DNA of 47,717 bases from a virus. Of the stretch, positions 585 through 22,814 are shown piece by piece (positions within the stretch are counted from its first letter, which is position 1; each line of letters starts with the position of its first letter). The notes under the pieces are model-generated. The model had not been told where the DNA came from and did no database searches. It was given only the letters and a program-made list of their open reading frames with translations. The DNA lies in the UHGV virus genome UHGV-0097968. The stretch is one strand, 5' to 3'. The translations under genes were made by a program, and so were the position numbers.

Positions 585-1631
585 TCATTTTCTCTGGCCA
601 CCAACTACGGGCACTACTTTAACTTTTCGGTCATATGCTGCTGTCTGTCGTGGGTTCTTATGCCCGGAAATTGCTTGCTTCTCTTCCAGGCTGCCTTCCA
701 GATCAGAGATACCTTTTGCTTTCAGATCATGAAATGTGAAGTCTATTTGCAGATGAGGATATTTTTCCTGTGCTGCCGCTTTGACATCACGCCAACGAGA
801 GTTAAAACCATCACGGGTGTACTTGCCTCCGGTAGTTTGATGAATCACAAACAGGCTACTGATTCCCGGTTTTAATGGCAGAGAACGAGCCAGAGCTATC
901 GCTTTCTGCAGACGAGGCGACCAGGCTTTGATTTGCTTAACGCCGGTTTTTCCCTGACGAATGTAGATCCCGGAATCGAACAGCTGGTCTTTCTGCAATG
1001 AAAGTACATCACTCTGTCTGGCCACGCATAAGTAGGCAATCTCCATTGCCACGCGAACAACATCAGGAGATACTTCATAAACGGCCTGATATTCTTCATC
1101 CGTAATATAACGTTCGCGTGCTGTCTCTTTAAACTGCTTAACTCCCTGACAAGGATTCCTCTGGACATAACCTCGTTCATAACCCCAACGGAATACCCTG
1201 GACATAAAGCTTTTTTCCCTGTTTGCCTGAGTTCGGCTTGATAAACCGCGTTGATCCATATAGCGCCGAATATGTTCAGGTTTGATTTTATCCGGGTCGA
1301 TCTTCCCGAAGACAGGCAGAACTTTTCCGGAATATTTTGTGTAGTCTTTCCTGGTTTCGACTGCCAAATCCATAAAATCAGGGGAGGTCATGAATTGTTC
1401 CGCGAGCGCCTGAAAAGTATTTCTTTCTTTTTCGTCACCGACCGCTTTTTCATATGCCAGCCATACGGCTGATCGTGGCGCATCCAATGCGCACAGGCGT
1501 ATCGCTTTGTTATCTTTATTCCTGAATTCGTAGGCCGCTTTGCCCTGGTAAACACGAGGCGGCATCCAGTTATCTGCTGGGTTCTTTCTCTTTCCGGCCA
1601 TTAAATATTGCTCCAAAATCAGGTTCATCAT
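585..1631 (-). CDS. int: Tyrosine recombinase, lambda-family phage integrase
   Basis: 348-aa ORF next to attL; C-terminal catalytic region with HDLKAKGISD...GH...AAYDRK resembling lambda Int R-H-R-Y region; RQGKTGVKQIK motif; true start may be an internal Met (MAGKRK). Confidence 0.9.
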   Translation of the reverse strand: MMNLILEQYLMAGKRKNPADNWMPPRVYQGKAAYEFRNKDNKAIRLCALDAPRSAVWLAYEKAVGDEKERNTFQALAEQFMTSPDFMDLAVETRKDYTKYSGKVLPVFGKIDPDKIKPEHIRRYMDQRGLSSRTQANREKSFMSRVFRWGYERGYVQRNPCQGVKQFKETARERYITDEEYQAVYEVSPDVVRVAMEIAYLCVARQSDVLSLQKDQLFDSGIYIRQGKTGVKQIKAWSPRLQKAIALARSLPLKPGISSLFVIHQTTGGKYTRDGFNSRWRDVKAAAQEKYPHLQIDFTFHDLKAKGISDLEGSLEEKQAISGHKNPRQTAAYDRKVKVVPVVGGQRK

Positions 1632-1833
1632 CTTTTCGCGTCGTCACCTCCTGTAAATTGCGAAATTTTATTGGGTTCATGAAATGGCCCCAGGTTGTTT
1701 TTGGGTGCCCGTCAGCCCTTTCCATGAAGAAAATTCCAGCCCGGCGAAGAGCCTCACATTGCTTTGATTTAAGTGGGCTTCCCGTCAGCTCGACCATTTC
1801 TTCTCTGGTGATTATGTCGTGATCGCTTCTCAT
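1570..1833 (-). CDS. xis: Putative excisionase (Xis-like DNA-binding protein)
   Basis: 87-aa ORF immediately upstream of and overlapping int; motif EALRRAGIFFMERADGHPKTTW resembles lambda Xis winged-helix region; RBS GAGGAAAGACC directly before ATG. Confidence 0.55.
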   Translation of the reverse strand: MRSDHDIITREEMVELTGSPLKSKQCEALRRAGIFFMERADGHPKTTWGHFMNPIKFRNLQEVTTRKDDEPDFGAIFNGRKEKEPSR

Positions 1834-2023
1834 GGTCTTTCCTCATTATGTAGCTTATTGCGTCATCTGCCGCCTTGCAGGCACGGGCAATATCAGACTC
1901 GGTCACAGCCTGTTTCCTGACGCTGGCCGACAGTCGGCCAATTTTGATATCAAATGCGGAGAGCAGAGTTGCTCCCGGTTGCCATCGCAGCATTGTGATC
2001 CTCCGGTTACTGGTGAAACGCAA
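1769..2023 (-). CDS. Hypothetical small protein (weak call)
   Basis: 84-codon ORF overlapping xis start by 65 bp; no recognisable motif. Confidence 0.25.
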   Translation of the reverse strand: MRFTSNRRITMLRWQPGATLLSAFDIKIGRLSASVRKQAVTESDIARACKAADDAISYIMRKDHEKRSRHNHQRRNGRADGKPT

Positions 2024-2042
2024 TGCTAGCGATGGTGAGTTT

Positions 2043-2225
2043 TTATTTCTGATTAGGCGTAATCAGTTCTGGTGGGGGGAATGCCGATTTCTCCCGCGTG
2101 ACCTTAATGTTTTCTGGCAGGTGTAGCCCAAGTTCGCAGCGGCTCCGTGCTTCAATAATGCCATTGGTACCATCGGCAAGTACCAGGTGAACCGCGTCAC
2201 CACGCTTTAATGTGAGTTTAAGCAT
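2043..2225 (-). CDS. Hypothetical small phage protein
   Basis: 60-aa ORF whose start overlaps the stop of the upstream gene (translational coupling). Confidence 0.4.
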   Translation of the reverse strand: MLKLTLKRGDAVHLVLADGTNGIIEARSRCELGLHLPENIKVTREKSAFPPPELITPNQK

Positions 2226-2794
2226 TAGCGTATCCTCAGTGACCGTTCGCCGCGTTCCAGATGTGCGCCTGGTACCGGGTTTAATAACTCGGCTGGTGGT
2301 GTTTCTCCACGCGCCAGTATTTCGGCGGCAACCGCCTCCGCAGATTCAATCACTTCTTTAATGGCTCGCTTGTTTGGTGTAATAACCGTTTCTACATCAA
2401 CAAGTGACACGCCTTCATACTCATCCGGGATCTTATCTTTGCTATCGATAATTACCCGGATAGCCCCCTGTGCATCAGTAAATGTGTTTTTTGCGGTTTT
2501 TAGTTTATCCAGGCCAGCAGCTTGCAGGCAGGCGAGCATATGCTTCCGAATTGCTTTTTCCTTGCCTTCAAAGGACGTCTTACGGGTAGCCAGGCGAGAC
2601 ATTTCTTCAGCGCAGGTACTGGCATTGCCCTGTAAATTGCGGCAGATGACCATCATGGCGTCCAGTTTGTCTCCCAGTTCTCCTTCCATACCTTCAAGCG
2701 TGTCGGCGATCATCTCTGGCGTCAGTTCGTCGGAGGTTTCCAGCAGGTCAATCAGGCTGGCATATTCTTTTGCAATAGCGATAGCGGTGCTCAT
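2225..2794 (-). CDS. Siphovirus Gp157-like early protein
   Basis: 189-aa acidic protein, N-terminus MSTAIAIAKEYASLIDLLE; position downstream of the recombination gene as in Gp157-family contexts (recollection, not searched). Confidence 0.5.
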   Translation of the reverse strand: MSTAIAIAKEYASLIDLLETSDELTPEMIADTLEGMEGELGDKLDAMMVICRNLQGNASTCAEEMSRLATRKTSFEGKEKAIRKHMLACLQAAGLDKLKTAKNTFTDAQGAIRVIIDSKDKIPDEYEGVSLVDVETVITPNKRAIKEVIESAEAVAAEILARGETPPAELLNPVPGAHLERGERSLRIR

Positions 2795-5007
2795 GCGGTT
2801 TGCTCCTGTGCAGCGGTGAGGGCGGCGAGGCGTTCAGTTTTGATGTCGGTGATACGGCGCAGGCGCGATCCCAGATACGATGAATATTCTTTATCGCCTT
2901 TGGCTTCTGCTGCTTTTCGGTGTACATCCACTTCGCGGGCGATGAGGCCAAATACCTTGTTTACTTCGTTAGTGGTTACCGCGGAGGCCAGCGTATTGGC
3001 AACGTTGATAAGCTTCTCATCCAGTTCCTTACGCAGACGGGTAGCATCTTCCGCATTCTCGCTGGCATTCTTGATATCAAACTCAGCTTTATTCCTCTGG
3101 CGGTATTCCGGATTGTCGTACAGGCCCATGAAAATATCGGCGCTGAATCCGAGAGGGGATAGCGCTTTCTTAACAGCATCCGTCCAGGATTTCTTCGGCG
3201 CTTCGCCGTCGCTTGTTGGTCCGTATTTAGTGTCGTAGATATAAGGTGTGCATCCGTAAGCCTCGGACTCACCGCGCACTCCATTCAATATGTACCAGAC
3301 TCTAACTTTCATGGTGTGGTGCATTTCACATAGGTACCCGCCAACACCGTCTTGAATCAGATCCCATTCTATTTTTTCACCAACCTGTTTTTTGCGAACT
3401 ATCGGTGCGCCTTTATCAAAACGCTCTTCCACCACCTCTACACCCCAGCCAATACCAAACGGCCCAAATTCGCGAGTCGCTTTCATCGCTATATAAGTGC
3501 CGTTGATGGATGTGCCGCCGCCGTCCTGAGAGAAAGCACTGGTGAAGCGCTCATCGGTTTTGAATACGTTCTTCCACAATGCCAGGTTATCTGTGTCGTC
3601 GGAGTCCTTTAACTCCGTTTCGATAGCTGAGATTGCATTCTGCCGCTTGTGCTCTTCGGTATGGATCCGCTCAACCAGCGCGTCAACGTTCTGCACCAGA
3701 TCCTTTACCTGCTCGCTAAGTTTTTCTTGTGGAGGAGTCTCTTCTGCCGGGGTAATAGCTGCAGGTTCCCTCTGTGAGACGGCGTTATTTTCAGGTACGT
3801 CATACACATGGCGAGGCGTGACAAACCGCTCACGCAACTGCTGCAAACTACGTTCTCCAGCATTTGCTGCTTCGCTTTTTTCGCCCTGATTTGAGGGTGT
3901 TTCTGACATCATCCCATCAATTGAGAATCGTCCGCCGCCGTGGTTGGTGACTTTTACATCATCCTTTGGTGCTGCTTCCTTTGGCTTCTCTTCAACAGCA
4001 TTTGCATCACGCTGCCCGTTAGCTTGCAGCCAGTTGTCGATGTGACTGCGCAGGGATTGTGGGAAGTGGTACATGTCTTTTGCGGGGACGCTCTGAATAA
4101 CACCGAATACTGATGCGCGGTCATAGGCAAGGATCTGATCCGTTGTGCGCAGGGCCATTGACCAGCGTTTAAAATCCTCCCGGTCCTGGCTGATTATTTC
4201 GTCTGCCGCTTTCAGGACGCTGGGGGTGATTTTTTCCGGGCCAACGGGTAACAGGGCGCAGGCAATTTCACGATCCAGTGTGGCGTGAGTCTGTTGGTAA
4301 GGACGTGCGGATGCTGTTTCTGGTTTTACCTCCGGCAGCATTTCATCGCGTTTACCGGGATTCTCTACCCATTTTTTTATAAATTTGGAGATAGTCCAAC
4401 TGGTCGGGTTTTGTTCCTGGGTATCGCAACTTGCCAAAATTGCATGTACCAGATTATTCAATCCAGCAATATGCATGTACTCGATGGGCTTACACGCCAC
4501 CATGGCATCAAGAACGATGCGGTTAAACGCGTCAACCTCATCCTCACTGTCAGTATCACTGTTGTCGAGCATCTCCAGGTATTCACGCGTCTGCGCAAGC
4601 AATTCACTGTCGACTTCGTTGGCATCGTGGCTGAACAGCAGGACGGCGGCGAAGCGTTCACGAGCAGGCAGTTTCATCAGGTCGCTAACCTGTGAGATAT
4701 CTGCTGAACTGCAACCTGAATCAACAGGAGTGTTAACTACCCATCTCTCGCCATCAAAACTGTGTTCTGTGGCAAACGTCTCATCAAACTCACCGACGCC
4801 TGGGCGCGGTTGGCCCGGGGCATCTTCCCAGATTTTAGGTTTGAAATAGTTGTCGCCGTGGTCAGGGTAGGTTTCCCACAATTTGCCGATGATGATGTTC
4901 TCGGCAACTTTTTTGTTAGGGGCGTCGATGGCGATGGCCAGCGCCGGGATCGCGCCGTTTTTGAGCGCGCCTTTTTTTGCTTCTAACAAGCCGTTAAAAA
5001 TGGTCAT
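2791..5007 (-). CDS. Large early-region protein (738 aa) with C-terminal region resembling a phage single-strand annealing recombinase (Rad52/Sak/Erf-like); N-terminal/central part acidic and unassigned
   Basis: Long uninterrupted ORF; C-terminal segment ...TREFGPFGIGWGVEV...GYLCEMHHTMKV...KSWTDAVKKALSPLGFSADIF... resembles SSAP cores by motif recollection; start overlaps downstream gene stop. Confidence 0.7.
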   Translation of the reverse strand: MTIFNGLLEAKKGALKNGAIPALAIAIDAPNKKVAENIIIGKLWETYPDHGDNYFKPKIWEDAPGQPRPGVGEFDETFATEHSFDGERWVVNTPVDSGCSSADISQVSDLMKLPARERFAAVLLFSHDANEVDSELLAQTREYLEMLDNSDTDSEDEVDAFNRIVLDAMVACKPIEYMHIAGLNNLVHAILASCDTQEQNPTSWTISKFIKKWVENPGKRDEMLPEVKPETASARPYQQTHATLDREIACALLPVGPEKITPSVLKAADEIISQDREDFKRWSMALRTTDQILAYDRASVFGVIQSVPAKDMYHFPQSLRSHIDNWLQANGQRDANAVEEKPKEAAPKDDVKVTNHGGGRFSIDGMMSETPSNQGEKSEAANAGERSLQQLRERFVTPRHVYDVPENNAVSQREPAAITPAEETPPQEKLSEQVKDLVQNVDALVERIHTEEHKRQNAISAIETELKDSDDTDNLALWKNVFKTDERFTSAFSQDGGGTSINGTYIAMKATREFGPFGIGWGVEVVEERFDKGAPIVRKKQVGEKIEWDLIQDGVGGYLCEMHHTMKVRVWYILNGVRGESEAYGCTPYIYDTKYGPTSDGEAPKKSWTDAVKKALSPLGFSADIFMGLYDNPEYRQRNKAEFDIKNASENAEDATRLRKELDEKLINVANTLASAVTTNEVNKVFGLIAREVDVHRKAAEAKGDKEYSSYLGSRLRRITDIKTERLAALTAAQEQTA

Positions 5008-5037
5008 TGGTCTTTCCTCATTACAGGTCAGTGGTCT

Positions 5038-5358
5038 TTAGTAGGGGATTTCATCGGTATCTGGCGTGTATTCGATGCAAAGTAACTGCTGGATTTTGTC
5101 ATCGATAGCAGCAATACGCTGTTGGGCGTCGGCGGCTGTTTTCTGTTTTTGCTCACGCAGCTGCTCAACCTGTAAACCGATGATGTCGATTGGCTGGGGC
5201 TGGTTGACGGTAATTTCAATTTCGCGGCTTTCCAGAAGGATGTACCTGTCTGGAAAATTTTTTGACATATCAACCGTCGCAATAAACAGCTTTTCATGGC
5301 TGAAAGTTGAAGTTGCATAATTAATAAAGAGTGTTACTGGGATGGTGCGCGCTTCCAT
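5038..5358 (-). CDS. Hypothetical early protein (first ORF of leftward operon)
   Basis: 106-aa ORF preceded by AAGGAG RBS (ccaccAAGGAGtcgctATG on minus strand). Confidence 0.5.
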   Translation of the reverse strand: MEARTIPVTLFINYATSTFSHEKLFIATVDMSKNFPDRYILLESREIEITVNQPQPIDIIGLQVEQLREQKQKTAADAQQRIAAIDDKIQQLLCIEYTPDTDEIPY

Positions 5359-6256
5359 AGCGACTCCTTGGTGGGGTATACTCAGAACCGATCAGCGGTT
5401 CTGTCGTTGGTCTTTCCTCGGTGTAAGGTTGGTCCCTTGCACCATATCCGAATGGTTTGGTCGCCGTTCGGGGTAACTGGCCCGCCTTGTGCGGGTCTTT
5501 TGCCATCTAAAGGGTGCCGGTTACGTTTCCGGCGTCGTTATGTTTCCATTACGACCGTACAGGGCTGGTCAGGCCCGGGCTGGTCTTTCCTGTTTTGAGC
5601 TGGTCAGGCTCATGGTCAACGCTGGTCAGGCGTGGTACTTCCTCCGGTCTTTCCCTGGTGTCATGCTGCGGGTTTGGCCTCTCCTGTTGGGGACTCAGGC
5701 ACAGCGATAAAACCTGGCTGTGTGAAAAAATGGCCCATCGTGCGGACTGGGCAAAGACTAAACACAGCAAATTGATGATGGGCGCCCGGAATCGAACCGG
5801 GTAACGGGCAGGGAGTTCCCGTCAAACACCTGTTCACCACAACCGGGAGCGCACTCCGCCATTTCAAAATTTAACGACAAAGCTCAAAGTTGAGTCGATG
5901 AAGTGCGCTCTCGTGTTGTAGCCAGGACTCTTCCCTGGTGGTCACACCGTATCGCCTTGATGGTGAATCAATCGCTCATACCTGGCTGTGGCTTGCACAT
6001 TCCGGCTACCTGCTATGGAGACAACGCGTTAAGGCTCCGCTTCCATCCAGACCGCTTCGACACATGTGCCATATGCCGGTGAAGTCTTTCCCTCTGTCAT
6101 CGTGTTGGCGCCGACGCGCAAAATTTGGTGCCGTCTTTCCGGCTGTCAGAACGTGTTTCTGAACAACTGCCGCTGGGTAAGCGTTGTTGATGGAATGAAT
6201 ATAACTAAAGGTAATTTTATGCGCAAGGTGTTTTATAACAAAAGTTAGTATTTGGG
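5359..6256 (-). other. Roughly 900-bp apparently non-coding leader of the leftward early operon, containing repeated GCCTGACCAGC and GGAAAGACC motifs and a candidate PL promoter/operator near 6210-6256
   Basis: No convincing ORF on either strand (only short overlapping biased ORFs); three copies of CCTGACCAGC on the transcript-sense strand near 5570-5640; operator-like AACAAAAGTTAGTATTT near 6236-6256 shares sequence with the cI-cro operator region. Confidence 0.45.
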
Positions 6257-6306
6257 GTAAAAATAAAGGCAATGCATTGAAAACATTGCCTTTATTTTAT
6301 TTTTTG
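6257..6306. terminator. Bidirectional rho-independent terminator after the repressor gene
   Basis: 10-bp stem AAAGGCAATG/CATTGCCTTT with 9-nt loop, flanked by A-run on one side and T-run (TTTATTTTATTTTTT) on the other. Confidence 0.6.
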
Positions 6307-6710
6307 GTGGGGGTTAGTTTCTTTCTGGTAACCAGTAACTCTTCAAATAAACGATTAAAGTTTTCAACTTTATCTTCTAATTCAATTAGTTGCTTTTCTT
6401 TTTCTGACTCGGGTAATGAATCAAATAACTCTAACAATCTTTTTTGACGTGAATCCAGCTCTGTTGGTAATTCGTCTACCGGAGTTGGCGCCTGGTCTTC
6501 GTCACCAAAAAGCAGCCATGTGGCAGAACACTTAAGTGCATTGGCCAAAGCCAGCAAGTTCTGACCTTTTGGTTCATTTTGTCCGCTTTCCCATTTAAAA
6601 ACGCTCACACTCGATCTTCCAACCATATCAGCAAGCTGTTGTTGGGTTAGACCAAGCTGTTTGCGTCTTTGAGATAAACGGTCGCTAAGCATCAAATTCT
6701 TCATCCTCAT
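6297..6710 (-). CDS. cI-like repressor, XRE-family HTH only (no peptidase S24 domain)
   Basis: 137-aa ORF with N-terminal HTH (LTQQQLADMVGRSSVSVFKWESGQNEP), divergent from a Cro-like gene; C-terminal part short, acidic and coiled-coil-like. Confidence 0.85.
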   Translation of the reverse strand: MRMKNLMLSDRLSQRRKQLGLTQQQLADMVGRSSVSVFKWESGQNEPKGQNLLALANALKCSATWLLFGDEDQAPTPVDELPTELDSRQKRLLELFDSLPESEKEKQLIELEDKVENFNRLFEELLVTRKKLTPTKK

Positions 6711-6778
6711 AATATAAGTTAACTTGACATAACTTTCGTTAGTATTTATGTTGCTAACAAAAGTTACGTGGAGGGATT
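6711..6778. promoter_or_regulatory. Immunity-region operator/promoter (PR-like for cro; operators)
   Basis: TTGACA at 6724-6729, 17-bp spacer, TATGTT at 6747-6752; perfect palindrome AAGTTAACTT at 6716-6725 overlapping -35; additional AACAAAAGTTA half-site; GGAGGG RBS before cro ATG. Confidence 0.6.
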
Positions 6779-6976
6779 ATGAAAACAGAGACGGTTATTA
6801 GTTTTTTTGGTTCAAAGACAGCCACAGCCAAGGTGCTGGGTATATCTCAAGTGGCGGTTACTCGTTGGGGGGCAACAGTTCCTGAAAAGCGAGCTGCTCG
6901 ACTCGACCATATCACTAACGGAGCACTGAAATATGACCCGACTTTTTACGATGTTCCAAAACATGAAAAAGCTTAG
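6779..6976 (+). CDS. Cro-like small HTH regulator
   Basis: 65-aa ORF, HTH FGSKTATAKVLGISQVAVTRW, divergent from repressor. Confidence 0.75.
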   Translation: MKTETVISFFGSKTATAKVLGISQVAVTRWGATVPEKRAARLDHITNGALKYDPTFYDVPKHEKA

Positions 6977-7035
6977 CAAAGGGCGGCTTATTACATCTGA
7001 TTAAGCGTAATCAATTTTTAGCGACAGGAGACGCT

Positions 7036-7512
7036 ATGGAAAACCCAGAGGAATTACAAAAAGAGATTTTGACCTGGGCGGCAAGGGCAGGGCAGGAACT
7101 CGTCACGATTGAAATCTGCCGGGCCTGGTTCAGTCAGGGACGCAATGATGAGTTGAGACTACATGAATTTGAGGACGCGGACGGCAATGTGGACTGGAGA
7201 GCCATCAACAACAATCGGCAGAAAATCTTTCGCTGGTTACGTGGCGAGACAACGGCGGCGCGCCGAAAAACTCAGGTGCTGGCCAGTGTGATGAAAGCCG
7301 TGCTACCCGCAGAACGGCGGGCGCGTCTGGAGTCGCCGGGCGATCCCGTTTTGCTGGCAACGCTGGCGGCAAAAGAAGGGGGGGAAGCGATTAACGCTGT
7401 ACATCTCCACTTCGCGCCAGAGTTAACTATTCAGGAAATTGACGAAGCAATAGCGGCGCTGGTAGCGACGCGAGGGGCAGTGATAAGCACTGCGCAAGGC
7501 CACCATGCATGA
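7036..7512 (+). CDS. YdaT-like protein (cII-position regulatory protein)
   Basis: 158 aa; segment IFRWLRGETTAARRKTQVL resembles YdaT-family signature by recollection; follows cro. Confidence 0.5.
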   Translation: MENPEELQKEILTWAARAGQELVTIEICRAWFSQGRNDELRLHEFEDADGNVDWRAINNNRQKIFRWLRGETTAARRKTQVLASVMKAVLPAERRARLESPGDPVLLATLAAKEGGEAINAVHLHFAPELTIQEIDEAIAALVATRGAVISTAQGHHA

Positions 7513-7551
7513 GCGCCTGACCAGCGTTTAACTTATACCGAGGAAAGACCG

Positions 7552-7776
7552 ATGTTAAGACATATTGACCGCATTACCTGGCGTAACGGCTGGCACCTGA
7601 ATGGGCGCCCGGCACATGTTGCAGAGATCCAACCTATTTTTGATGGGCGTATGGCTGCCGCGCTTTCGGTGTGGGAGCAGTATGAATCCAGGAAGGTCGA
7701 GTTGCGCGACAAAGGGCTGAGCAATGCGGACTATGAAGCCGGTTGTCGTCAGATAGCCGAAGCTCTGGAGATCTGA
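7552..7776 (+). CDS. Hypothetical early protein
   Basis: 74-aa ORF preceded by conserved element CCTGACCAGCG...ACCGAGGAAAGACCGATG. Confidence 0.5.
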   Translation: MLRHIDRITWRNGWHLNGRPAHVAEIQPIFDGRMAAALSVWEQYESRKVELRDKGLSNADYEAGCRQIAEALEI

Positions 7777-7778
7777 GT

Positions 7779-8843
7779 ATGAGTCGTTTGCTGATTAACG
7801 AAAACCCCCTTCAGGTCCTGCCCACGTTGGCATGCACTATAGGGTTGAATGAAGCCATCGTTCTACAGCAAATCCACTACTGGCTGAATTCGTCTCAAAA
7901 TTTCTTCGAAAATCGCCACTGGGTGTACAACAGTGTGACCGACTGGCAAGAACAATTCCCGTTCTGGAGCGAGTCGACAATAAAACGCGTGTTGGCCAAT
8001 CTGGAAAAATTGAATGTGTTGCTTACTGGGAACTTTAACAGTGATGCCTGGGATAAAACCAAGTGGTATTCAATCAATTATGCCCAGTTATGTAAGATTG
8101 AAGAGACAACATTCCCTGTGGCCAATCGATTAGGTCAAGTTGACCCAATCGAAGAGGTCAATGTGACCCAAGCATCAGGTCAAGTTGACCCATGCGCTAA
8201 GGTCAAAATGACCCAATCTCCTACAGAGAATACAACAGAGAGTACTACAGAGATAAAAGATCCCCCTTACCCCCAAAAGGGGGAGGGCGAGGAAATCATT
8301 CTCGCTGACGCTCAAAAAGCTCTGAACTACTACAACGAGAAAGTCGGTACCCGCTGCCGCGACGTTAAACCGTTTGTCATGCTGCTAACTGCCACCACCA
8401 CCCGCGCTGGTTACAGCGTGGCTGAGATTCAGTTAGTAATTCGTTGGGTTATTGCGACATGGCGCCGTCGTAGCGGAAGCGTGCCGAAACCTGCGAACAT
8501 TTGCCGCGTAAACCGGTTTGACGGATATCTGGCTGACGCTGAGGCGTGGGCCACTGCTGAGGCTGCCGTTGACCCTGCTGAAGTTGTGAAGGGCTACAAC
8601 GAGATTCTGGGCGACCTGCTACCTATAGCTGAAATTGATACTGACCGCCGTCGGGCAATCCTGCGCCTGCTGGCACATATGCGCACGCAAACTCTTGGCG
8701 CATTTATCGGCTACTTCGAAAAATTCCGCGATAACGCCCCAGACTTCTATTTCGGCGGCGAATATCGCACCGGCTGGCGGGCAGGGTTTGATTACCTGAT
8801 GAAACCGGAAACGCTGCGTAAAACCAGGGAGGGGGCATTATGA
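7779..8843 (+). CDS. Replication initiator (lambda O-like), origin iterons inside the gene
   Basis: ATG at 7779 with GGAG RBS (the track's 7743 start is a TTG); four iterons within the coding region; stop overlaps helicase start (ATGA). Confidence 0.7.
   Translation: MSRLLINENPLQVLPTLACTIGLNEAIVLQQIHYWLNSSQNFFENRHWVYNSVTDWQEQFPFWSESTIKRVLANLEKLNVLLTGNFNSDAWDKTKWYSINYAQLCKIEETTFPVANRLGQVDPIEEVNVTQASGQVDPCAKVKMTQSPTENTTESTTEIKDPPYPQKGEGEEIILADAQKALNYYNEKVGTRCRDVKPFVMLLTATTTRAGYSVAEIQLVIRWVIATWRRRSGSVPKPANICRVNRFDGYLADAEAWATAEAAVDPAEVVKGYNEILGDLLPIAEIDTDRRRAILRLLAHMRTQTLGAFIGYFEKFRDNAPDFYFGGEYRTGWRAGFDYLMKPETLRKTREGAL
8133..8215. repeat. Origin-of-replication iterons (4 copies of GGTCAANNTGACCCA, period about 22-23 bp)
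   Basis: Copies at 8133-8147, 8156-8170, 8178-8192, 8201-8215 inside the initiator gene. Confidence 0.7.
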
Positions 8844-10231
8844 ATCCGGAGGAACTGGAAGCGACCGTTCTCGCTGGTCTGATTAACGGTGGCGCGACGC
8901 CTGACGCGTTTGATGTGATAGCCACCACTCCGGAGGAAGCCTTCAGCATCGTGTTTCACCGCCACGCTTTCAGCGAAATCAAAAAGCAGGCACTGGCGAA
9001 CGGCATGATCGACATGTTGTTTATCAGCGAAGCGCTGGGCGGCTCCAGCCTTGCGGATCTGTCTCAGATATCCCGGATCCCGGCGACGGTACCGAATCTG
9101 AAAGGCTATGCCGGGAAAATGGTGCAGGCCTGGCGGAGCCGCAAAATGGCGGCATTGTTGCAATCTGGTGCTGACGGTATCCGTAACGCTGTAAACCAGA
9201 GTCAGCGTGATGAGGTTATTGAATCTCATGTTGCTCAGGTGCTGGATATGAGCGCCGCTACCGGCACAGTCCAGCCGGTACACATCAAAGAGCTGTTACC
9301 ACTCTACATTGACACCGTTGATAAACGGATGTCTGGTGACGCGCAGGAAATGATGCTGAAAACCGGAGTCGAGGATCTGGATGTCGCCCTGGGCGGTATC
9401 AACATGACCGACCTTGTTGTGGTTGCCGGTCGTCCAGGCATGGGGAAAACGGAATTTACCCTGAAGATTATCGATGGCGTTACCGCAGATGGCGGAGGCG
9501 CACTGTTTTTCAGCATGGAAATGGGCGCTCAGCAGATTGTTGAACGTACCGTTGCCGGGGCTGGGAATATGTCCTCATCGCGTCTGCGTAATCCAAAAGA
9601 AATGGACGATGAGGACTGGTCTCGATTAACCGCCGCGCTTGCAATCATGCAGGATCGCGATATCTGGATTGTTGATGCCACTGATTTGACGATTGAGCAG
9701 ATCCGCGCCATTGCAGAGACTCATAAACGCCGTTATCCGCACCTGAAGCTGATTGGTGTTGATTACATGGGCCTGATCAAAAAACCTAAGGCCGAGCGCC
9801 ACGATCTCGCGGTCGGGCATATCTCACGAAACATGAAGACTATGGCCATGCGTCTGCATACCCCTGTTTTTGCTCTTAGCCAGCTTTCCCGCCAGGTGGA
9901 TTCTCGACCTGCTGGCCAGCGTCGCCCGGTGATGTCGGACCTGCGCGATTCCGGCAGTGTTGAGCAGGACGCTGACAGCATTTTGTTTTTGTATCGCGAT
10001 GAAGTTTACACAACTGATTCACCTGCAAAGGGTATCGCCGAGGTGATTATCGGTAAAAACCGTTCTGGCGGGGCAGGTGAAATTATTTATCAGGAATTCA
10101 GGAATGGGCATTTCCTGCCAGTTGATCAACACGTAGCACGCGAAAAATTACGCATCCAGAAGGAGGCAGAACAACCGAGAAAACGTGAAAAACGGTATTC
10201 AAACAAAAACTTTAATACGGACCCCTTTTAA
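8840..10231 (+). CDS. DnaB-family replicative DNA helicase
   Basis: 463 aa; Walker A GRPGMGKT, motifs GVDYMGLI, SQLSR, DLRDSGSVEQDADSILFLYRDEVY typical of DnaB C-terminal domain. Confidence 0.9.
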   Translation: MNPEELEATVLAGLINGGATPDAFDVIATTPEEAFSIVFHRHAFSEIKKQALANGMIDMLFISEALGGSSLADLSQISRIPATVPNLKGYAGKMVQAWRSRKMAALLQSGADGIRNAVNQSQRDEVIESHVAQVLDMSAATGTVQPVHIKELLPLYIDTVDKRMSGDAQEMMLKTGVEDLDVALGGINMTDLVVVAGRPGMGKTEFTLKIIDGVTADGGGALFFSMEMGAQQIVERTVAGAGNMSSSRLRNPKEMDDEDWSRLTAALAIMQDRDIWIVDATDLTIEQIRAIAETHKRRYPHLKLIGVDYMGLIKKPKAERHDLAVGHISRNMKTMAMRLHTPVFALSQLSRQVDSRPAGQRRPVMSDLRDSGSVEQDADSILFLYRDEVYTTDSPAKGIAEVIIGKNRSGGAGEIIYQEFRNGHFLPVDQHVAREKLRIQKEAEQPRKREKRYSNKNFNTDPF

Positions 10232-10269
10232 CCACGCCTGACCAGCGTGAAATAACCGAGGAAAGACCA

Positions 10270-10680
10270 ATGACCACCACTCCAGGCAAATTAGAGTACC
10301 CGTCGGACAAAGGACACATAGATGACGGTAAAAACTATCTCGACGTCATTTTGTGGAATATGAACGTCGGGCCACGTGCGCGCACTCGTGCGGTTTTTGT
10401 GCCAAGACCCAAAGCCGGCAATTTTTCAACCCCTGCTCAACCAGCCCGTCAGGCATCCGTAACCGCAGCGCCAGCAGTGAAACGTAAGGGTAAAACGCAC
10501 ATCGGGATCGCGATTCGCAGAAATGGTGAGCGGCAAGTGAAACTCCACGAAACAGCGACAACCTGGTGTGCCTCACCGCATGAAACTTACGACAAGATAA
10601 CCGGGCAGCGAATTGGTGCGCCCGGTCGCTGTCGCCTGCTGCTGAGTTCCATCACTCCGATAGCAAAGAAAGGGACGTGA
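10270..10680 (+). CDS. Hypothetical protein
   Basis: 136-aa ORF preceded by the conserved element ending ACCGAGGAAAGACCAATG. Confidence 0.5.
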   Translation: MTTTPGKLEYPSDKGHIDDGKNYLDVILWNMNVGPRARTRAVFVPRPKAGNFSTPAQPARQASVTAAPAVKRKGKTHIGIAIRRNGERQVKLHETATTWCASPHETYDKITGQRIGAPGRCRLLLSSITPIAKKGT

Positions 10681-11623: not shown

Positions 11624-12775
11624 ATGGCATGGACTGGATTTGGTGGTCAATGGAATAACGGTGTGCATTCTGGCGGTGATGATTCTGGCAGTATAGGCGG
11701 TGGGGGCATAAAACTTGACGGCAAAGGGAATCCTGTAGGTACTCGTGCGCCGACTGCTGAGGAGATCGCATCACAATGGAATAGCTTTGGAGGTAGTCAG
11801 ATTAAACCCAGTGATGTATCGAACATCAGACCGGATGGTGAAGGTACTTATCAGGCTAACATTGCAGGTAATTACCACGTTGTAAGTTCGCAGGGCGCGA
11901 ATACCCCATTTGCTTCGGAACGTAGCAACGTTGCGGCAGGTTTTAGTGGTGGTGTGGGACCAACGCCTGATGGAAGGGGTAACAATAGTGCACCCAGCAA
12001 TCCAAAGGCTGAGGCCGAGGCAAAGAAATGGATTGAAACAGTCAAGGCTGTTCGGGCTGGTAATATCCCCTACGGTTATGTTCTTAACGACGGCAAGGTA
12101 GGCGTAAACGTGCCTCAATATGTTGAACGCCGCAAAGGTCGTGGCGACACATATACCGTTCGGGGTAAAGATTTGTTTGTTGTTTCGCCTGAACTGACAA
12201 AAGCGTATCAGGATGGTCTTGCGGAACGTGCTGAGATTCTGGACGCCGTCAAATTTACGTCTGATTTCTATAAAGACCTTGCAGGTAAATTTGGACAGCA
12301 TAACGCGAACATCGCAAAGGAACTGGCGGAGGCTGCAAAAGGCAAGAAGATTCGTAACAGCAAAGATGCACTGGCGGCGGTGGATAAATTTAATAACCGA
12401 CTGAGTAAAAAGTATGGAGCCAAAGACCTTGAGGCAGTTGCCAGGGCTTTGGAATCGGTTAACCGGGATGCAATGGCGAAGAATTTGTCTAAATTTGGTA
12501 AGGCATTTGGTGTCGCAAGTTATGCTGTCGATGCTTACAATGTTCTTTACATTGAATTTCCGAAAGCTATTCGTACCAAAAACTATCGCCCAATGCTTGT
12601 TAAGTTGGAGGCAATTCTTCTTGGTGCTGATGCTGGTATTGTTGCTGCGTGGGCATTTAGTGCGCTTCTGGCAACGCCGATGGGTATTCTGACGTTTGCG
12701 CTTATAATGGCATTGCTAAGTGCGATGATTAATGAAAAACGCATTGAGGAACTGAATAAGTTCTTAGGGATTTAA
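11624..12775 (+). CDS. Colicin E1-family pore-forming bacteriocin (short, 383 aa; Gly-rich N-terminal domain, C-terminal channel-forming domain)
   Basis: Gly-rich N-terminus MAWTGFGGQWNNGVHSGGDDSGSIGGGG; C-terminal domain with GKKIRN, KFGKAFGVAS, RTKNYRPMLVKLEAILLGADAGIVAAWAFSALLATPMGILTFALIMALLSAMINEKRIEELNKFLGI (hydrophobic hairpin and terminal NKFxGI) matching my recollection of colicin E1/Ia-type pore domains; SOS box in promoter; GAAGGAAG RBS. Confidence 0.85.
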   Translation: MAWTGFGGQWNNGVHSGGDDSGSIGGGGIKLDGKGNPVGTRAPTAEEIASQWNSFGGSQIKPSDVSNIRPDGEGTYQANIAGNYHVVSSQGANTPFASERSNVAAGFSGGVGPTPDGRGNNSAPSNPKAEAEAKKWIETVKAVRAGNIPYGYVLNDGKVGVNVPQYVERRKGRGDTYTVRGKDLFVVSPELTKAYQDGLAERAEILDAVKFTSDFYKDLAGKFGQHNANIAKELAEAAKGKKIRNSKDALAAVDKFNNRLSKKYGAKDLEAVARALESVNRDAMAKNLSKFGKAFGVASYAVDAYNVLYIEFPKAIRTKNYRPMLVKLEAILLGADAGIVAAWAFSALLATPMGILTFALIMALLSAMINEKRIEELNKFLGI

Positions 12776-13479: not shown

Positions 13480-13556
13480 GCAGCCGCAAAATCGGTTGCC
13501 GGGATTTGCACCCCGGATATCTAAAAGGCGACAACGACGCGCCAGCGTCTTTTTTA
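13480..13556 (+). ncRNA. Candidate about 77-nt small regulatory RNA upstream of the antirepressor gene (C4-like/antisense-type)
   Basis: Promoter immediately upstream; hairpin GCAGCCG-CAAAAT-CGGTTGC; hairpin CCGGG-ATTTGCAC-CCCGG; terminator stem GACGC/GCGTC with GCCA loop and T6 at 13536-13556; loop sequence has a complementary and a direct copy in the antirepressor leader. Confidence 0.4.
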
Positions 13557-13715
13557 TTGTCGTGCGCACAGCCACATCCGCGATTTATGGTGGGGCGTGT
13601 AGGGGAGTCGAAAGGCTCGCCGGGTCCTTTTAGCCGGTAGTGCAAACCCTGCATGTCTCACCACCCAAAGATTTGCACCTGAGGGGGGTGATTATCCGAC
13701 TAAAAGGAAATCGCT

Positions 13716-14510
13716 ATGACAACTCAAGTATCCGCAGCAGCCATCTCCCCGATTATCCACAACCAACTTCCCGTCCTCACCACCGAATTACTCGCGAACC
13801 TCTATGGCACAGAGCCGGATTACATTCGTAAAAACCATAACCGGAACTCAGAGCGATTCGTGGTCGGGAAGCATTACTTTTTGCTCGAAGGTGAGGAGTT
13901 GCGCGAATTTAAGCACAGCATGTCTTTAAGACCTCCTGTGAAAATCGCCAGAAATGTCCGCTCTCTCATCCTCTGGACAGAACGCGGCGCAGCTCGCCAT
14001 GCCAAAATGCTGGAAACAGAACAGGCCTGGGAAGTTTTCGAAAAGCTGGAAGATTGTTATTTTAGCCAGCGTCCAGAGAGGCGGAGTACAACTACCGATG
14101 ACCGTACTCCCTTACGTGATGCCGTTAATATGCTGGTCGGTAAGAAAGGCATGATGTATCCCGATGCCTACACCATGATTCATCAACGCTTCGCCGTCTC
14201 TCACATAGAACAACTGTCACAGACGCAAATGTTAGAGGCGATTGAATACATCCACTGCCTGCTACTCGATGAAAATCAGCCAACCATTCCGGATTTTTCT
14301 TTTATCACCACTATCAAAAATGGAAAAGTGACAAGGATGCGCCATGTTGCCAAAGGCGAACATCTGATGACCTTTGACGCTTTCAAAGAGATCGCTGAGC
14401 GGGCAGGGTATCTGGTGATCCACAGCGACAACCTGCGAAGTATGACGCTGGATAAATTGATGCTAATGGGGGAAAAGTCGGCTGTATCCGTTGCTGATTC
14501 AGCATTTTGA
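13716..14510 (+). CDS. Putative antirepressor (ORF6N-like N-terminal domain)
   Basis: 264 aa; N-terminal region ISPIIHNQLPVLTTELLANLYGTEPDYIRKNHNRNSERFVVGKHYFLLEGEELREF resembles ORF6N/Ant-type domain by recollection; RBS AAAAGGAAA. Confidence 0.6.
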   Translation: MTTQVSAAAISPIIHNQLPVLTTELLANLYGTEPDYIRKNHNRNSERFVVGKHYFLLEGEELREFKHSMSLRPPVKIARNVRSLILWTERGAARHAKMLETEQAWEVFEKLEDCYFSQRPERRSTTTDDRTPLRDAVNMLVGKKGMMYPDAYTMIHQRFAVSHIEQLSQTQMLEAIEYIHCLLLDENQPTIPDFSFITTIKNGKVTRMRHVAKGEHLMTFDAFKEIAERAGYLVIHSDNLRSMTLDKLMLMGEKSAVSVADSAF

Positions 14511-21853: not shown

Positions 21854-22143
21854 AAAAAATCGACCTCAGAAAAGCTGCACGCGGTCGCGCTTGTACTGTG
21901 CGTATCCCCGGTGTGTGTAATCACAATCCGGAAACCAGTGTACTGGCTCACTACCGCCTCGCCGGAACATGCGGAACAGCAATCAAACCACACGATATGC
22001 AGGGCGCTATCGCCTGCAGTGCGTGTCACGATGCTATCGACGGACGTACAAAAACGGATTACGAGCACGACTCATTGCTGTTGATGCACGCTGAGGGAGT
22101 TTTCAGAACACTGGCTATCTGGCGCGATGAGGAGTTTATCTGA
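21850..22143 (+). CDS. DUF1364 (YbcO-like) nin-region protein
   Basis: 97 aa; DLRKAARGRACTVRIPGVCNHNPETSVLAH...IACSACHD resembles YbcO by recollection. Confidence 0.6.
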   Translation: MKKIDLRKAARGRACTVRIPGVCNHNPETSVLAHYRLAGTCGTAIKPHDMQGAIACSACHDAIDGRTKTDYEHDSLLLMHAEGVFRTLAIWRDEEFI

Positions 22144-22814
22144 TGAGTAACGAGTATTTATTGGAATATACCCGCATAAAACTGCGCGCTGCATTGCGGG
22201 ATTTGTCTGGTGGTTCTAAGGGGCAACTGGAAGCATTGTGTGAGCACCCGCCGGCAGACAAAAACGCATACCCACGCAAACATATTCATCGTGTGCAACT
22301 GGAGGACCGGACCGTTGATGCTCTGGTTACGCCAGTTTACGCCCTGGAAAGTTTCAGCAGACGTCGCCCCGCGCCGCCGATGAATGATTTTGAATTTGCT
22401 GATTCATCCTGGCGGCGTTCTGTGAACTCGCTGGATGCAAGTCAGCAAGCGTGGTTGCGCTATTGCTACGGTGGTAACCTGGCGTTCAAACACCAAACAG
22501 CTATTTGTGAGGCTGTCTGGAGTCGCTATAAAGGAAACATCCCCGCGTCAACTCAGAGAAAAGTAGTCAAGCGCCTGCTTTCGCTGGTGTGGTTGTCCGT
22601 GCAGGCGGTCGCAGCAGCAAATAAACGCGAGGATTTTAAGGAGATGGCCGGATCTGCGCTAGCTGGAATGTTGTCTGTTTCTCGCTCCACCTGGTGCGAA
22701 ACATACTCCCCGCACTGGGCAGGAATGAAAGAGGCGGTGAGAGCACTTGATGAAGTGGCACTTCTTGCAACTTTGCATCATTATCAAAACCATTTAGACG
22801 ACGTTTGCGTATAA
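22143..22814 (+). CDS. Putative late-gene antiterminator (Q-like) by position
   Basis: 223-aa ORF immediately upstream of the late promoter region and holin gene; no family motif confirmed. Confidence 0.4.
   Translation: MSNEYLLEYTRIKLRAALRDLSGGSKGQLEALCEHPPADKNAYPRKHIHRVQLEDRTVDALVTPVYALESFSRRRPAPPMNDFEFADSSWRRSVNSLDASQQAWLRYCYGGNLAFKHQTAICEAVWSRYKGNIPASTQRKVVKRLLSLVWLSVQAVAAANKREDFKEMAGSALAGMLSVSRSTWCETYSPHWAGMKEAVRALDEVALLATLHHYQNHLDDVCV

Follow-up and report, generated by a model that had tools for sequence, protein, structure and literature searches.

A bipartite sense-strand signal at gene starts and in the leader of the early transcripts of an Escherichia lambdoid prophage

The virus genome UHGV-0097968, whose full 47,717-nt stretch we call the window, is a lambdoid prophage in an Escherichia chromosome, adjoining tRNA genes for Gly, Cys, and Leu (152–454). 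Its early region comprises a leftward and a rightward operon (Table 1), and both contain an element of two parts: a small hairpin (part A), followed by the sequence GAGGAAAGACC (part B) situated 0 to 4 nt before an ATG. Hairpin A is placed at or just past the stop codon of the upstream gene, and B and the start codon open the next one. A prior reading of the bare sequence (the original prediction) had noted a recurrent, roughly 40-bp element in consistent transcript-sense orientation and suggested that it acts at the RNA level. Our analysis confirms that this observation is real and that it was understated: the element is a bipartite, cis-acting signal on the sense strand of early mRNAs in an uncharacterised group of temperate lambdoid phages of the Enterobacterales.

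Two full copies lie in the rightward operon where they had been reported, before the open reading frames (ORFs) of 74 amino acids (aa) at 7552 and of 136 aa at 10270. Hairpin A of copy 1 begins at the TGA stop codon of the YdaT-like ORF, and the copy reads ..TGAGCGCCTGACCAGCGTTTAACTTATACCGAGGAAAGACCGATG; that of copy 2 starts 2 nt past the TAA stop codon of the DnaB-like ORF, and the copy reads ..TAACCACGCCTGACCAGCGTGAAATAACCGAGGAAAGACCAATG. The reported occurrence of B and ATG before xis (B at 1844–1834 on the minus strand, then the ATG of the xis-like gene) was likewise recovered, and the reported minus-strand cluster at 5400–5660 resolves into three hairpins with the same loop and three B-like copies. 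Several copies had been overlooked: the junction before the 738-aa gene, two B cores in the leftward leader, and one B core within int. At the 738-aa-gene junction, the stem is weak in the window, and relatives have a full hairpin (e.g., GGCGC-CTGACCT-GCGCC).

These occurrences are far more numerous in the window than expected from dinucleotide shuffles: ACCGAGGAAAGACC with at most two mismatches was found 6 times versus 0.19 expected, CGCCTGACCAGCGT 3 times versus 0.40, and the core GGAAAGAC 10 times versus 1.5, with all 10 cores in the early region (1344–10267). The minus strand has eight of these cores, all left of 6200, and the plus strand has the other two, both right of 7500; therefore, every copy is in the sense orientation for its local operon. 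A covariance model built from related phages (R1) detects six window sites at an E value of ≤1e-4 and one further lone hairpin at an E value of 0.1, with nothing below an E value of 4 in the rest of the 47.7 kb (Table 1); the two top sites are represented in the training set of the model, and the other four are not. The element is covered by no known RNA family, either at Rfam gathering thresholds across the window or in a permissive scan of 5300–6300.

Table 1. Copies of the element and early-region features in the window (R1, covariance model from related phages; empty cells, not given)
Feature	Position	Strand	Remarks
Hairpin A, copy 1	7510–7530	+	7 pairs, including G·U; loop CUGACCA 7517–7523; RNA fold; R1 match 7510–7554, 52.4 bits
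B, copy 1, GAGGAAAGACC	7540–7550	+	then G, then ATG 7552 of 74-aa ORF
Hairpin A, copy 2	10233–10249	+	stem CACGC/GCGTG; loop CUGACCA 10238–10244; RNA fold; R1 match 10231–10272, 59.9 bits
B, copy 2, GAGGAAAGACC	10258–10268	+	then A, then ATG 10270 of 136-aa ORF
B before xis-like ORF, AATGAGGAAAGACC	1847–1834	-	abuts ATG 1833–1831; no hairpin; R1 match 1830–1876, 22.3 bits
Degenerate A and exact B before 738-aa ORF	5039–5005	-	CTGACC 5031–5026, weak stem; B 5019–5009; ATG 5007; R1 match 5005–5039, 24.0 bits
B core GGAAAGAC, two copies	6091–6084 and 6140–6133	-	promoter-proximal leftward leader
B core GGAAAGAC inside int	1351–1344	-	
B-like ACCAGGGAAAGACC	5659–5646	-	leader array
Hairpin ACGC/GCGT, loop CUGACCA	5633–5619	-	leader array; RNA fold; R1 match 5579–5636, 28.7 bits
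Hairpin TGAGC/GCTCA, loop CUGACCA	5612–5596	-	leader array; RNA fold; same R1 match
B-like CAGGAAAGACC	5592–5582	-	leader array
Hairpin GGGC/GCCC, loop CUGACCA	5576–5562	-	leader array; RNA fold; R1 lone hairpin 5564–5574
Second hairpin kind AAGG/CCTT, loop GACCAA	5438–5425	-	upstream of orphan B; R1 match 5405–5438, 24.5 bits
Orphan exact B, ACCGAGGAAAGACC	5422–5409	-	ACG in place of ATG
int	585–1631		leftward operon
xis-like gene, DUF4224	1570–1833		leftward operon
Gp157-family gene			leftward operon
738-aa exonuclease-like gene	2791–5007		leftward operon
106-aa gene	5038–5358		first gene of leftward operon
Gene-free leader, ~850 nt			between 106-aa gene and CI-like repressor gene
CI-like repressor gene	6297–6710		beyond gene-free leader
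Promoter-like sites, outward-facing	6724–6752 and 6241–6214	+ and -	
cro	from 6779		rightward operon
YdaT/CII-like gene	7036–7512		rightward operon
74-aa ORF, phrog_2465	7552–7776	+	rightward operon
O-like gene			rightward operon, between 74-aa and DnaB-like genes
DnaB-like gene	8840–10231		rightward operon
136-aa ORF, phrog_5148	10270–10680	+	rightward operon
Q antiterminator gene	22143–22814		

Part A combines a fixed loop with a changing stem. Within the window alone, five different stems close the loop CTGACCA (TGAGCGC/GCGTTTA, CACGC/GCGTG, ACGC/GCGT, TGAGC/GCTCA, and GGGC/GCCC), with stem lengths of 4 to 7 bp. Across 1.25 Mb of related loci, a stem of at least 3 bp flanks 294 of the 507 CTGACCA words, versus at most ~15%, and mostly <3%, for five scrambled loop words used as a control. 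Covariation was assessed in 62 distinct 23-mers, picked by the loop word plus a downstream B or by their position in the leader array, with pairing ignored. All 6 stem pairs change on both sides in this set; 78.5% of cells are paired (versus 70.2% in shuffles and 14 to 46% with the partner slid), and the covariation score of 0.28 (versus 0.135 for shuffles) was reached by 0 of 500 shuffles. Among the independent stems are GCGC/GCGC, GGGC/GCCC, GAGC/GCTC, CGG/CCG, and GGTGT/GCACC. Stems contain 17 G·U pairs and 7 A·C pairs, an excess indicating that folding of the sense strand, as RNA, is favoured. The loop itself is CTGACCA in 107 of 148 distinct elements and retains TGACC or TAACC in the others, and the spacer that separates A from B measures 8 to 14 nt and is 43% A and 13% G. 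Intrinsic terminators were considered and rejected as the identity of the hairpins, as those at dnaB and in the leader array are not followed by a T-run.

Part B is tied to start codons. The exact sequence occurs 528 times in the related loci, with an ATG 0 to 4 nt downstream of 402 copies (76%) and a CTGACC at most 45 nt upstream of 256. It contains the Shine-Dalgarno core GAGG; the bases that follow GAGG would not be explicable by pairing with the 3′ end of 16S rRNA, judging from the known anti-Shine-Dalgarno sequence. Proteins encoded downstream of B form 14 unrelated clusters, at least 8 of them recurrent, and include the 74-aa protein, a 136- to 225-aa “DDGCNW” protein, the ~700-aa exonuclease-like protein, the xis-like protein, and accessory proteins of 95, 86, and 48 aa; the presence of the same signal before several unrelated early genes suggests one common controlling factor. 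No copy of B lies outside the early region, whether in the window or in a complete phage genome (44 kb) of the group. The word GACCA is common to the loop of A, the loop of a second kind of hairpin in the leader, and the 3′ part of B. As for a possible pairing of GACCA with 16S rRNA, the complementary stretch would belong to a paired helix of the 30S head, a point on which we do not rely. Literature searches with the half-motifs returned only unrelated sequences, such as primers.

More than 160 related phage loci carry the element, in Escherichia, Citrobacter, Enterobacter, Raoultella, Serratia, Yersinia, Rosenbergiella, and Symbiopectobacterium. Because the initial loci had been recovered by means of the motif, others were fetched through the 74-aa protein alone. 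Among the 42 distinct regions upstream of the 74-aa gene in these protein-fetched loci, the hairpin is found in 40 and B or a one-base variant of it in 38; the two exceptions still have a hairpin, with the loop ACGACCA or CTAACCA. Conservation of the upstream region extends to ~50% identity of the 74-aa protein and spans Escherichia, Citrobacter, Enterobacter, Raoultella, Yersinia, and Rosenbergiella. Only two cultured-phage records contain the element, both labelled as Stenotrophomonas phages: BUCT708 (locus L130; OM816834.1) and BUCT709 (OM816835.1). The early region of these two phages is of the enterobacterial prophage type, and their host assignment deserves a check.

The translational status of the hairpin differs between sites and lineages. 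The hairpin that precedes the 74-aa gene is, in most relatives, coding sequence for the C-terminus of the YdaT-like protein (..ETQRLTSV*, of which ..RLTSV* represents the last five codons), whereas the hairpin after dnaB is non-coding and lies downstream of the stop codon; of 159 instances counted, 69 have an upstream ORF that extends through the hairpin. In the window, the YdaT-like ORF is frameshifted and ends at a TGA (7510–7512) 6 nt before CCTGACC, leaving the hairpin untranslated, and the ancestral YdaT end, ..ERLTSV*, survives in the other frame (ALRKATMHERLTSV at 7470–7531, versus ALQAMRETQRLTSV in relatives). This frameshift is lineage-specific and common to at least 13 contigs. Because the same nucleotides are kept whether they are coding or non-coding, selection acts on the nucleic acid and not on the peptide.

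Copies of both parts also occur away from gene starts, in the leftward leader. Here, an array without an ORF is arranged, in the direction of transcription, as B-like, hairpin, hairpin, B-like, hairpin (5659–5562), and an intrinsic-terminator-like hairpin with a T-run (5747–5733) precedes it, in an order that is the same in Serratia. Farther along the transcript is an orphan exact B, at which relatives have an ATG and a mini-ORF of 34 to 47 codons; this ATG is now ACG in the window. In most loci, the interval that separates the repressor and 106-aa genes has one to three hairpins and two to three copies of B, and at most a tiny ORF. The architecture of the array is kept across the group, and because orphan leader copies are conserved, B does more than start translation.

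Variation in B is concerted within genomes. The sequence GAGGAAAGACC is represented by 782 copies in 163 loci that have zero copies of GAGGCAAGACC, and GAGGCAAGACC is represented by 70 copies in 16 loci that have zero copies of GAGGAAAGACC; mixed loci were not found. The variant base (GAGGA versus GAGGC) falls outside the GAGG core, and the C form occupies every junction, as well as the orphan leader copies, within the same genome, such that the array shares the variant of the gene starts. Since the A form occurs in a Serratia prophage and the C form in Yersinia and Symbiopectobacterium prophages, the variant does not track host family. Since lineages share orthologous junctions, unlinked sites must have changed in parallel, which would be the expected product of co-evolution with a specific reader, the alternative being homogenisation between copies.

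The covarying stem with its invariant loop, the excess of G·U pairs, the position of the Shine-Dalgarno core 0 to 4 nt from ATG, and the uniform sense orientation bear out the earlier claim of an RNA-level signal on the sense strand. Among the specific mechanisms then suggested, a translational operator fits this evidence best, although it is not proven. Our tentative preference, on the basis of sequence comparisons, is that the element may be a start-associated RNA operator, or shared ribosome-binding module, read by a lineage-specific trans factor. B would be the ribosome-binding site of these genes, and the GACCA-containing single-stranded parts of A and B would be recognised by a trans-acting factor with sequence specificity, most probably an RNA-binding protein that the phage encodes. 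Such a factor could control how the early genes are translated as a group, and perhaps how stable their mRNAs are, by either repression or activation, and the leader array might provide a high-density platform for binding or titration. Possible, but unlikely in all its particulars, is the more specific proposal that an unrecognised phage RNA-binding regulator reads GACCA in the loops and in the extended ribosome-binding site and thereby switches the early genes of both operons, through translation or mRNA fate, with the leader serving as a sponge or sensor and with specificity and sites having shifted together from GAGGA to GAGGC.

Several points weigh against a trans-read RNA operator. No trans factor was identified, and the 74-aa and 136-aa proteins, whose genes are the ones most tightly linked to the element, have no Pfam or known-function PHROG family. 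The 74-aa protein is modelled with a pLDDT of 88.7 as three short strands and a helical hairpin, but the model has no significant match among solved structures, nor does the sequence have one in the PDB. The hairpin upstream of the 74-aa gene is translated through in most relatives and would there lose its bound protein at each passage of a ribosome. Hairpin thermodynamics are modest (z-scores of −0.9 to −2.8, by RNA fold), and the covariation counts derive from related sequences, in which events are not independent. Finally, concerted variation could in principle stem from recombination between copies, and cassette insertions and deletions are indeed found with B at their ends. With regard to candidate factors, the 136-aa protein contains a GPRARTRAVF stretch; a trans-acting RNA was also sought in the window, where reverse complements of A and B lie only opposite the copies themselves and none is present in the isrK or C4 RNA.

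Among rival explanations, we consider it improbable that the element is an RNA processing or stability signal, with either an RNase E-like intercistronic cut, directed by the hairpin and the A-rich spacer, or B as the target of an early-mRNA nuclease, as for RegB, setting the half-lives of individual cistrons. Such a role would suit the intercistronic position, the limitation to early genes, and the arrangement of a hairpin right where the upstream cistron ends, with an A-rich single-stranded spacer of 8 to 14 nt after it, and a sequence-specific nuclease would also account for the constancy of the loop and of B and for the concerted variation. However, RNase III would require longer stems, orphan arrays in the leader are not an obvious need of a processing signal, and no candidate nuclease was identified.

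Conserved linkers at module boundaries, which the original prediction offered as another explanation, would be short homologies at gene borders by which modules are swapped, inserted, or deleted while recombinants stay viable. Part of this idea stands, in that B marks cassette borders at least. A 94-aa gene between the 106-aa and ~700-aa genes is present or absent exactly between direct B repeats (with a 12- to 16-nt overlap, in four pairwise comparisons), and in a wider scan, B repeats bound 7 of 24 insertion or deletion events, with 3 more at the related sequence GAGGAAAACCAATG. Moreover, accessory genes of different families in the leftward operon each have their own B, and the phage encodes an exonuclease-like protein and a Gp157 protein. 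The same junction pattern would nevertheless arise, without recombination at B, from cassettes that merely carry their own B, and the breakpoints expected at the elements were not observed there: of 53 sharp identity changes between locus pairs (one side <2% diverged, the other >8%), none is at a full element. Change points near the 74-aa gene are instead at −600/−550 and +100 to +350 (the cro/ydaT border and inside downstream genes), and only two, at +100, follow dnaB. The most widely shared block, 6995–7686, which occurs in hundreds of E. coli genomes, crosses the element (7514–7551).

A linker has no need of stem covariation, a fixed loop, or orphan leader arrays, and we assign this explanation of the full element only a small likelihood. 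Pile-ups of BLAST endpoints between the window and the loci, at 7500–7525 and 10275–10300, were set aside because the loci were selected for the exact element, which creates an island of identity. The boundary sequences of lambdoid phages, which Clark et al. 2001 reportedly described from HK620 and which stand beside an older linker model of modular phage evolution, resemble the element in being short conserved sequences at gene or module borders of the non-structural part, and B repeats bound cassette insertions and deletions; the covariation and start-codon spacing seen here, however, are not explained by a linker role, and HK620 has zero copies of A or B. A second repeat at ribosome-binding sites, GAGGAAAACCAATG / GGAGAAACCAATG, bounds other insertions or deletions of ~300 nt that distinguish related phages downstream of the replication genes (in loci L002, L025, and L130).

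Quite improbable, in our assessment, is the nut-like antitermination site proposed in the original prediction, by which, with an unknown protein or (as in put sites) alone, polymerase would read through terminators toward the distal early genes and Q. As in the nut sites of lambdoid phages, the nascent sense RNA of both divergent early operons has a small hairpin whose stem varies and whose loop does not. Compared with the CUAACC hexaloop of phage 21 boxB (PDB 1NYB; PMC12550061), the loop CUGACC(A) is similar but differs by one transition and one extra base, and 8 of the 148 distinct elements read CUAACCA. A Q gene is present without a recognisable N, and the leader array lies in untranslated RNA. 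Against this, the window has 18 matches to the boxA pattern versus 25 expected, and none adjoins a hairpin; in HK620, by comparison, nutL and nutR have CGCTCTTTAACA and then a 7-bp boxB. There is no convincing N-like ORF in the leader (5360–6205), and the 106-aa and other small early proteins have no Pfam or known-function PHROG match and are not arginine-rich, although a novel factor is conceivable. The sites number at least two rightward and at least four leftward, at 0.6 to 3.5 kb from the promoter-like sites, and not one promoter-proximal site per operon, and the array is downstream, not upstream, of the conserved intrinsic terminator. Translation through the nut site of lambda blocks its function, and most relatives have the hairpin upstream of the 74-aa gene within a translated ORF. 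Also, B and its fixed distance from ATG, which couple the hairpin to a ribosome-binding site, are left unexplained by antitermination.

A stoperator-type DNA site, at which a phage DNA-binding protein bound to B would block elongating polymerase in an orientation-dependent manner and silence early genes in the lysogen, is highly improbable. B is indeed an asymmetric short repeat in a single orientation relative to transcription, within short intergenic spaces, with a lineage-specific consensus and some copies lacking a start codon, and stoperators have been set against start-associated sequences in the literature (PMC3203893). But there is no B core in 6140–7542, a stretch that includes the cI-cro operator region, a Shine-Dalgarno core sits 0 to 4 nt from ATG in 76% of exact copies, and the linked part A has RNA-type covariation with G·U pairs.

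The surroundings of the leader array contain further features. Directly upstream of it, at 5723–5857 on the minus strand, is a tRNA-like fragment with a T-arm (GGTTCGATTCCGGG) that ends in the terminator-like hairpin at 5747–5733; this fragment may represent the remains of a tRNA gene or else a small RNA, and the permissive Rfam scan of 5300–6300 gave only sub-threshold similarities, to RprA (35.7 bits) and tRNA-Sec (19.9 bits). An 8-bp hairpin, CAGAACCG-CUGAU-CGGUUCUG (5398–5381, minus strand), separates the orphan B from the ribosome-binding site that belongs to the 106-aa gene; in relatives, this hairpin is within the mini-ORF of 34 to 47 codons starting at the orphan B. Terminator-like hairpins also lie antisense to the array, at 5513–5536 and 5561–5587 (plus strand), the second arising where the complement of one hairpin A pairs up with that of a B-like copy. 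Any antisense RNA running rightward across the array would carry anti-A and anti-B sites; no promoter-like site for such a transcript was found.

Elsewhere in the window, the sole Rfam matches at gathering thresholds are the three tRNAs, isrK (76 bits), and the C4 antisense RNA (74 bits), the last two at 13480–13668 (plus strand), directly upstream of an ORF with an ORF6N domain (13716–14510). The ORF6N-domain family is presumably antirepressor-like, and the isrK/C4/ORF6N cluster looks like a P1/P7-type immI module within a lambdoid prophage. The prophage also encodes a 383-aa protein with a colicin pore-forming domain (E value of 2e-45; 11624–12775, plus strand), opposite which is a 176-aa ORF (11771–12301). 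Directly past the repressor gene, a perfect inverted repeat (AAAGGCAATG..CATTGCCTTT, 6262–6295) flanked by A-runs and T-runs resembles a bidirectional terminator. Two 33-nt stretches, 7653–7685 and 8184–8216, are identical to CRISPR-annotated features in several E. coli genomes; thus, chromosomal arrays carry spacers against the 74-aa and O-like genes of this phage.

Control by repressors and antiterminators has its textbook example in the temperate lambdoid phages. An operator that acts after transcription and is shared by many early genes, if real, would be a layer of control not described for these phages. The element is common in the prophages of E. coli, Enterobacter, Serratia, Yersinia, and their relatives. 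The two never-mixing variants of B constitute a natural experiment, and the 40-nt RNA and the leader array could serve as reagents in a search for the factor. The motif is also a compact marker for true start codons and early genes in this prophage group.

Comparable arrangements, in which one trans factor acts on a short motif at or near the ribosome-binding sites of many early mRNAs, are offered by RegA and RegB of phage T4 and by CsrA. For CsrA, the two bound sites are a hairpin loop and a stretch overlapping the Shine-Dalgarno sequence, and there are decoy RNAs with arrays of sites. Their motifs are not those of the element: RegA recognises AU-rich sites, the cut by RegB is at GGAG within early ribosome-binding sites, and CsrA requires GGA in a loop. 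No homologue of any of the three was identified in the window.

Closest in layout are the start-associated sequence (SAS) and extended SAS (ESAS) repeats of Cluster K mycobacteriophages, of which the element is an analogue and not a homologue. SAS repeats consist of a Shine-Dalgarno core with conserved flanks unable to pair with 16S rRNA, placed a few nucleotides before mostly ATG starts; they precede unrelated gene families, among non-structural genes only and in one orientation, with a consensus that differs between sub-lineages (PMC3203893). About half of the SAS sites have an inverted repeat directly upstream (ESAS), for which the authors saw little support as an RNA hairpin; the mechanism of SAS is unknown, and a host or phage factor is suspected (PMC3203893). 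The present element is likewise start-associated, asymmetric, confined to one orientation and to early or non-structural genes, linked to unrelated gene families, and preceded in a subset of cases by an inverted repeat. The consensus (GGGATAGGAGCCC in SAS versus GAGGAAAGACC here), the hosts, and the phages are unrelated, and the element differs further in its short, fixed-loop hairpin with compensatory changes and in its orphan array in an untranslated leader. As such, it may inform the unanswered question of how SAS repeats act in mycobacteriophages.

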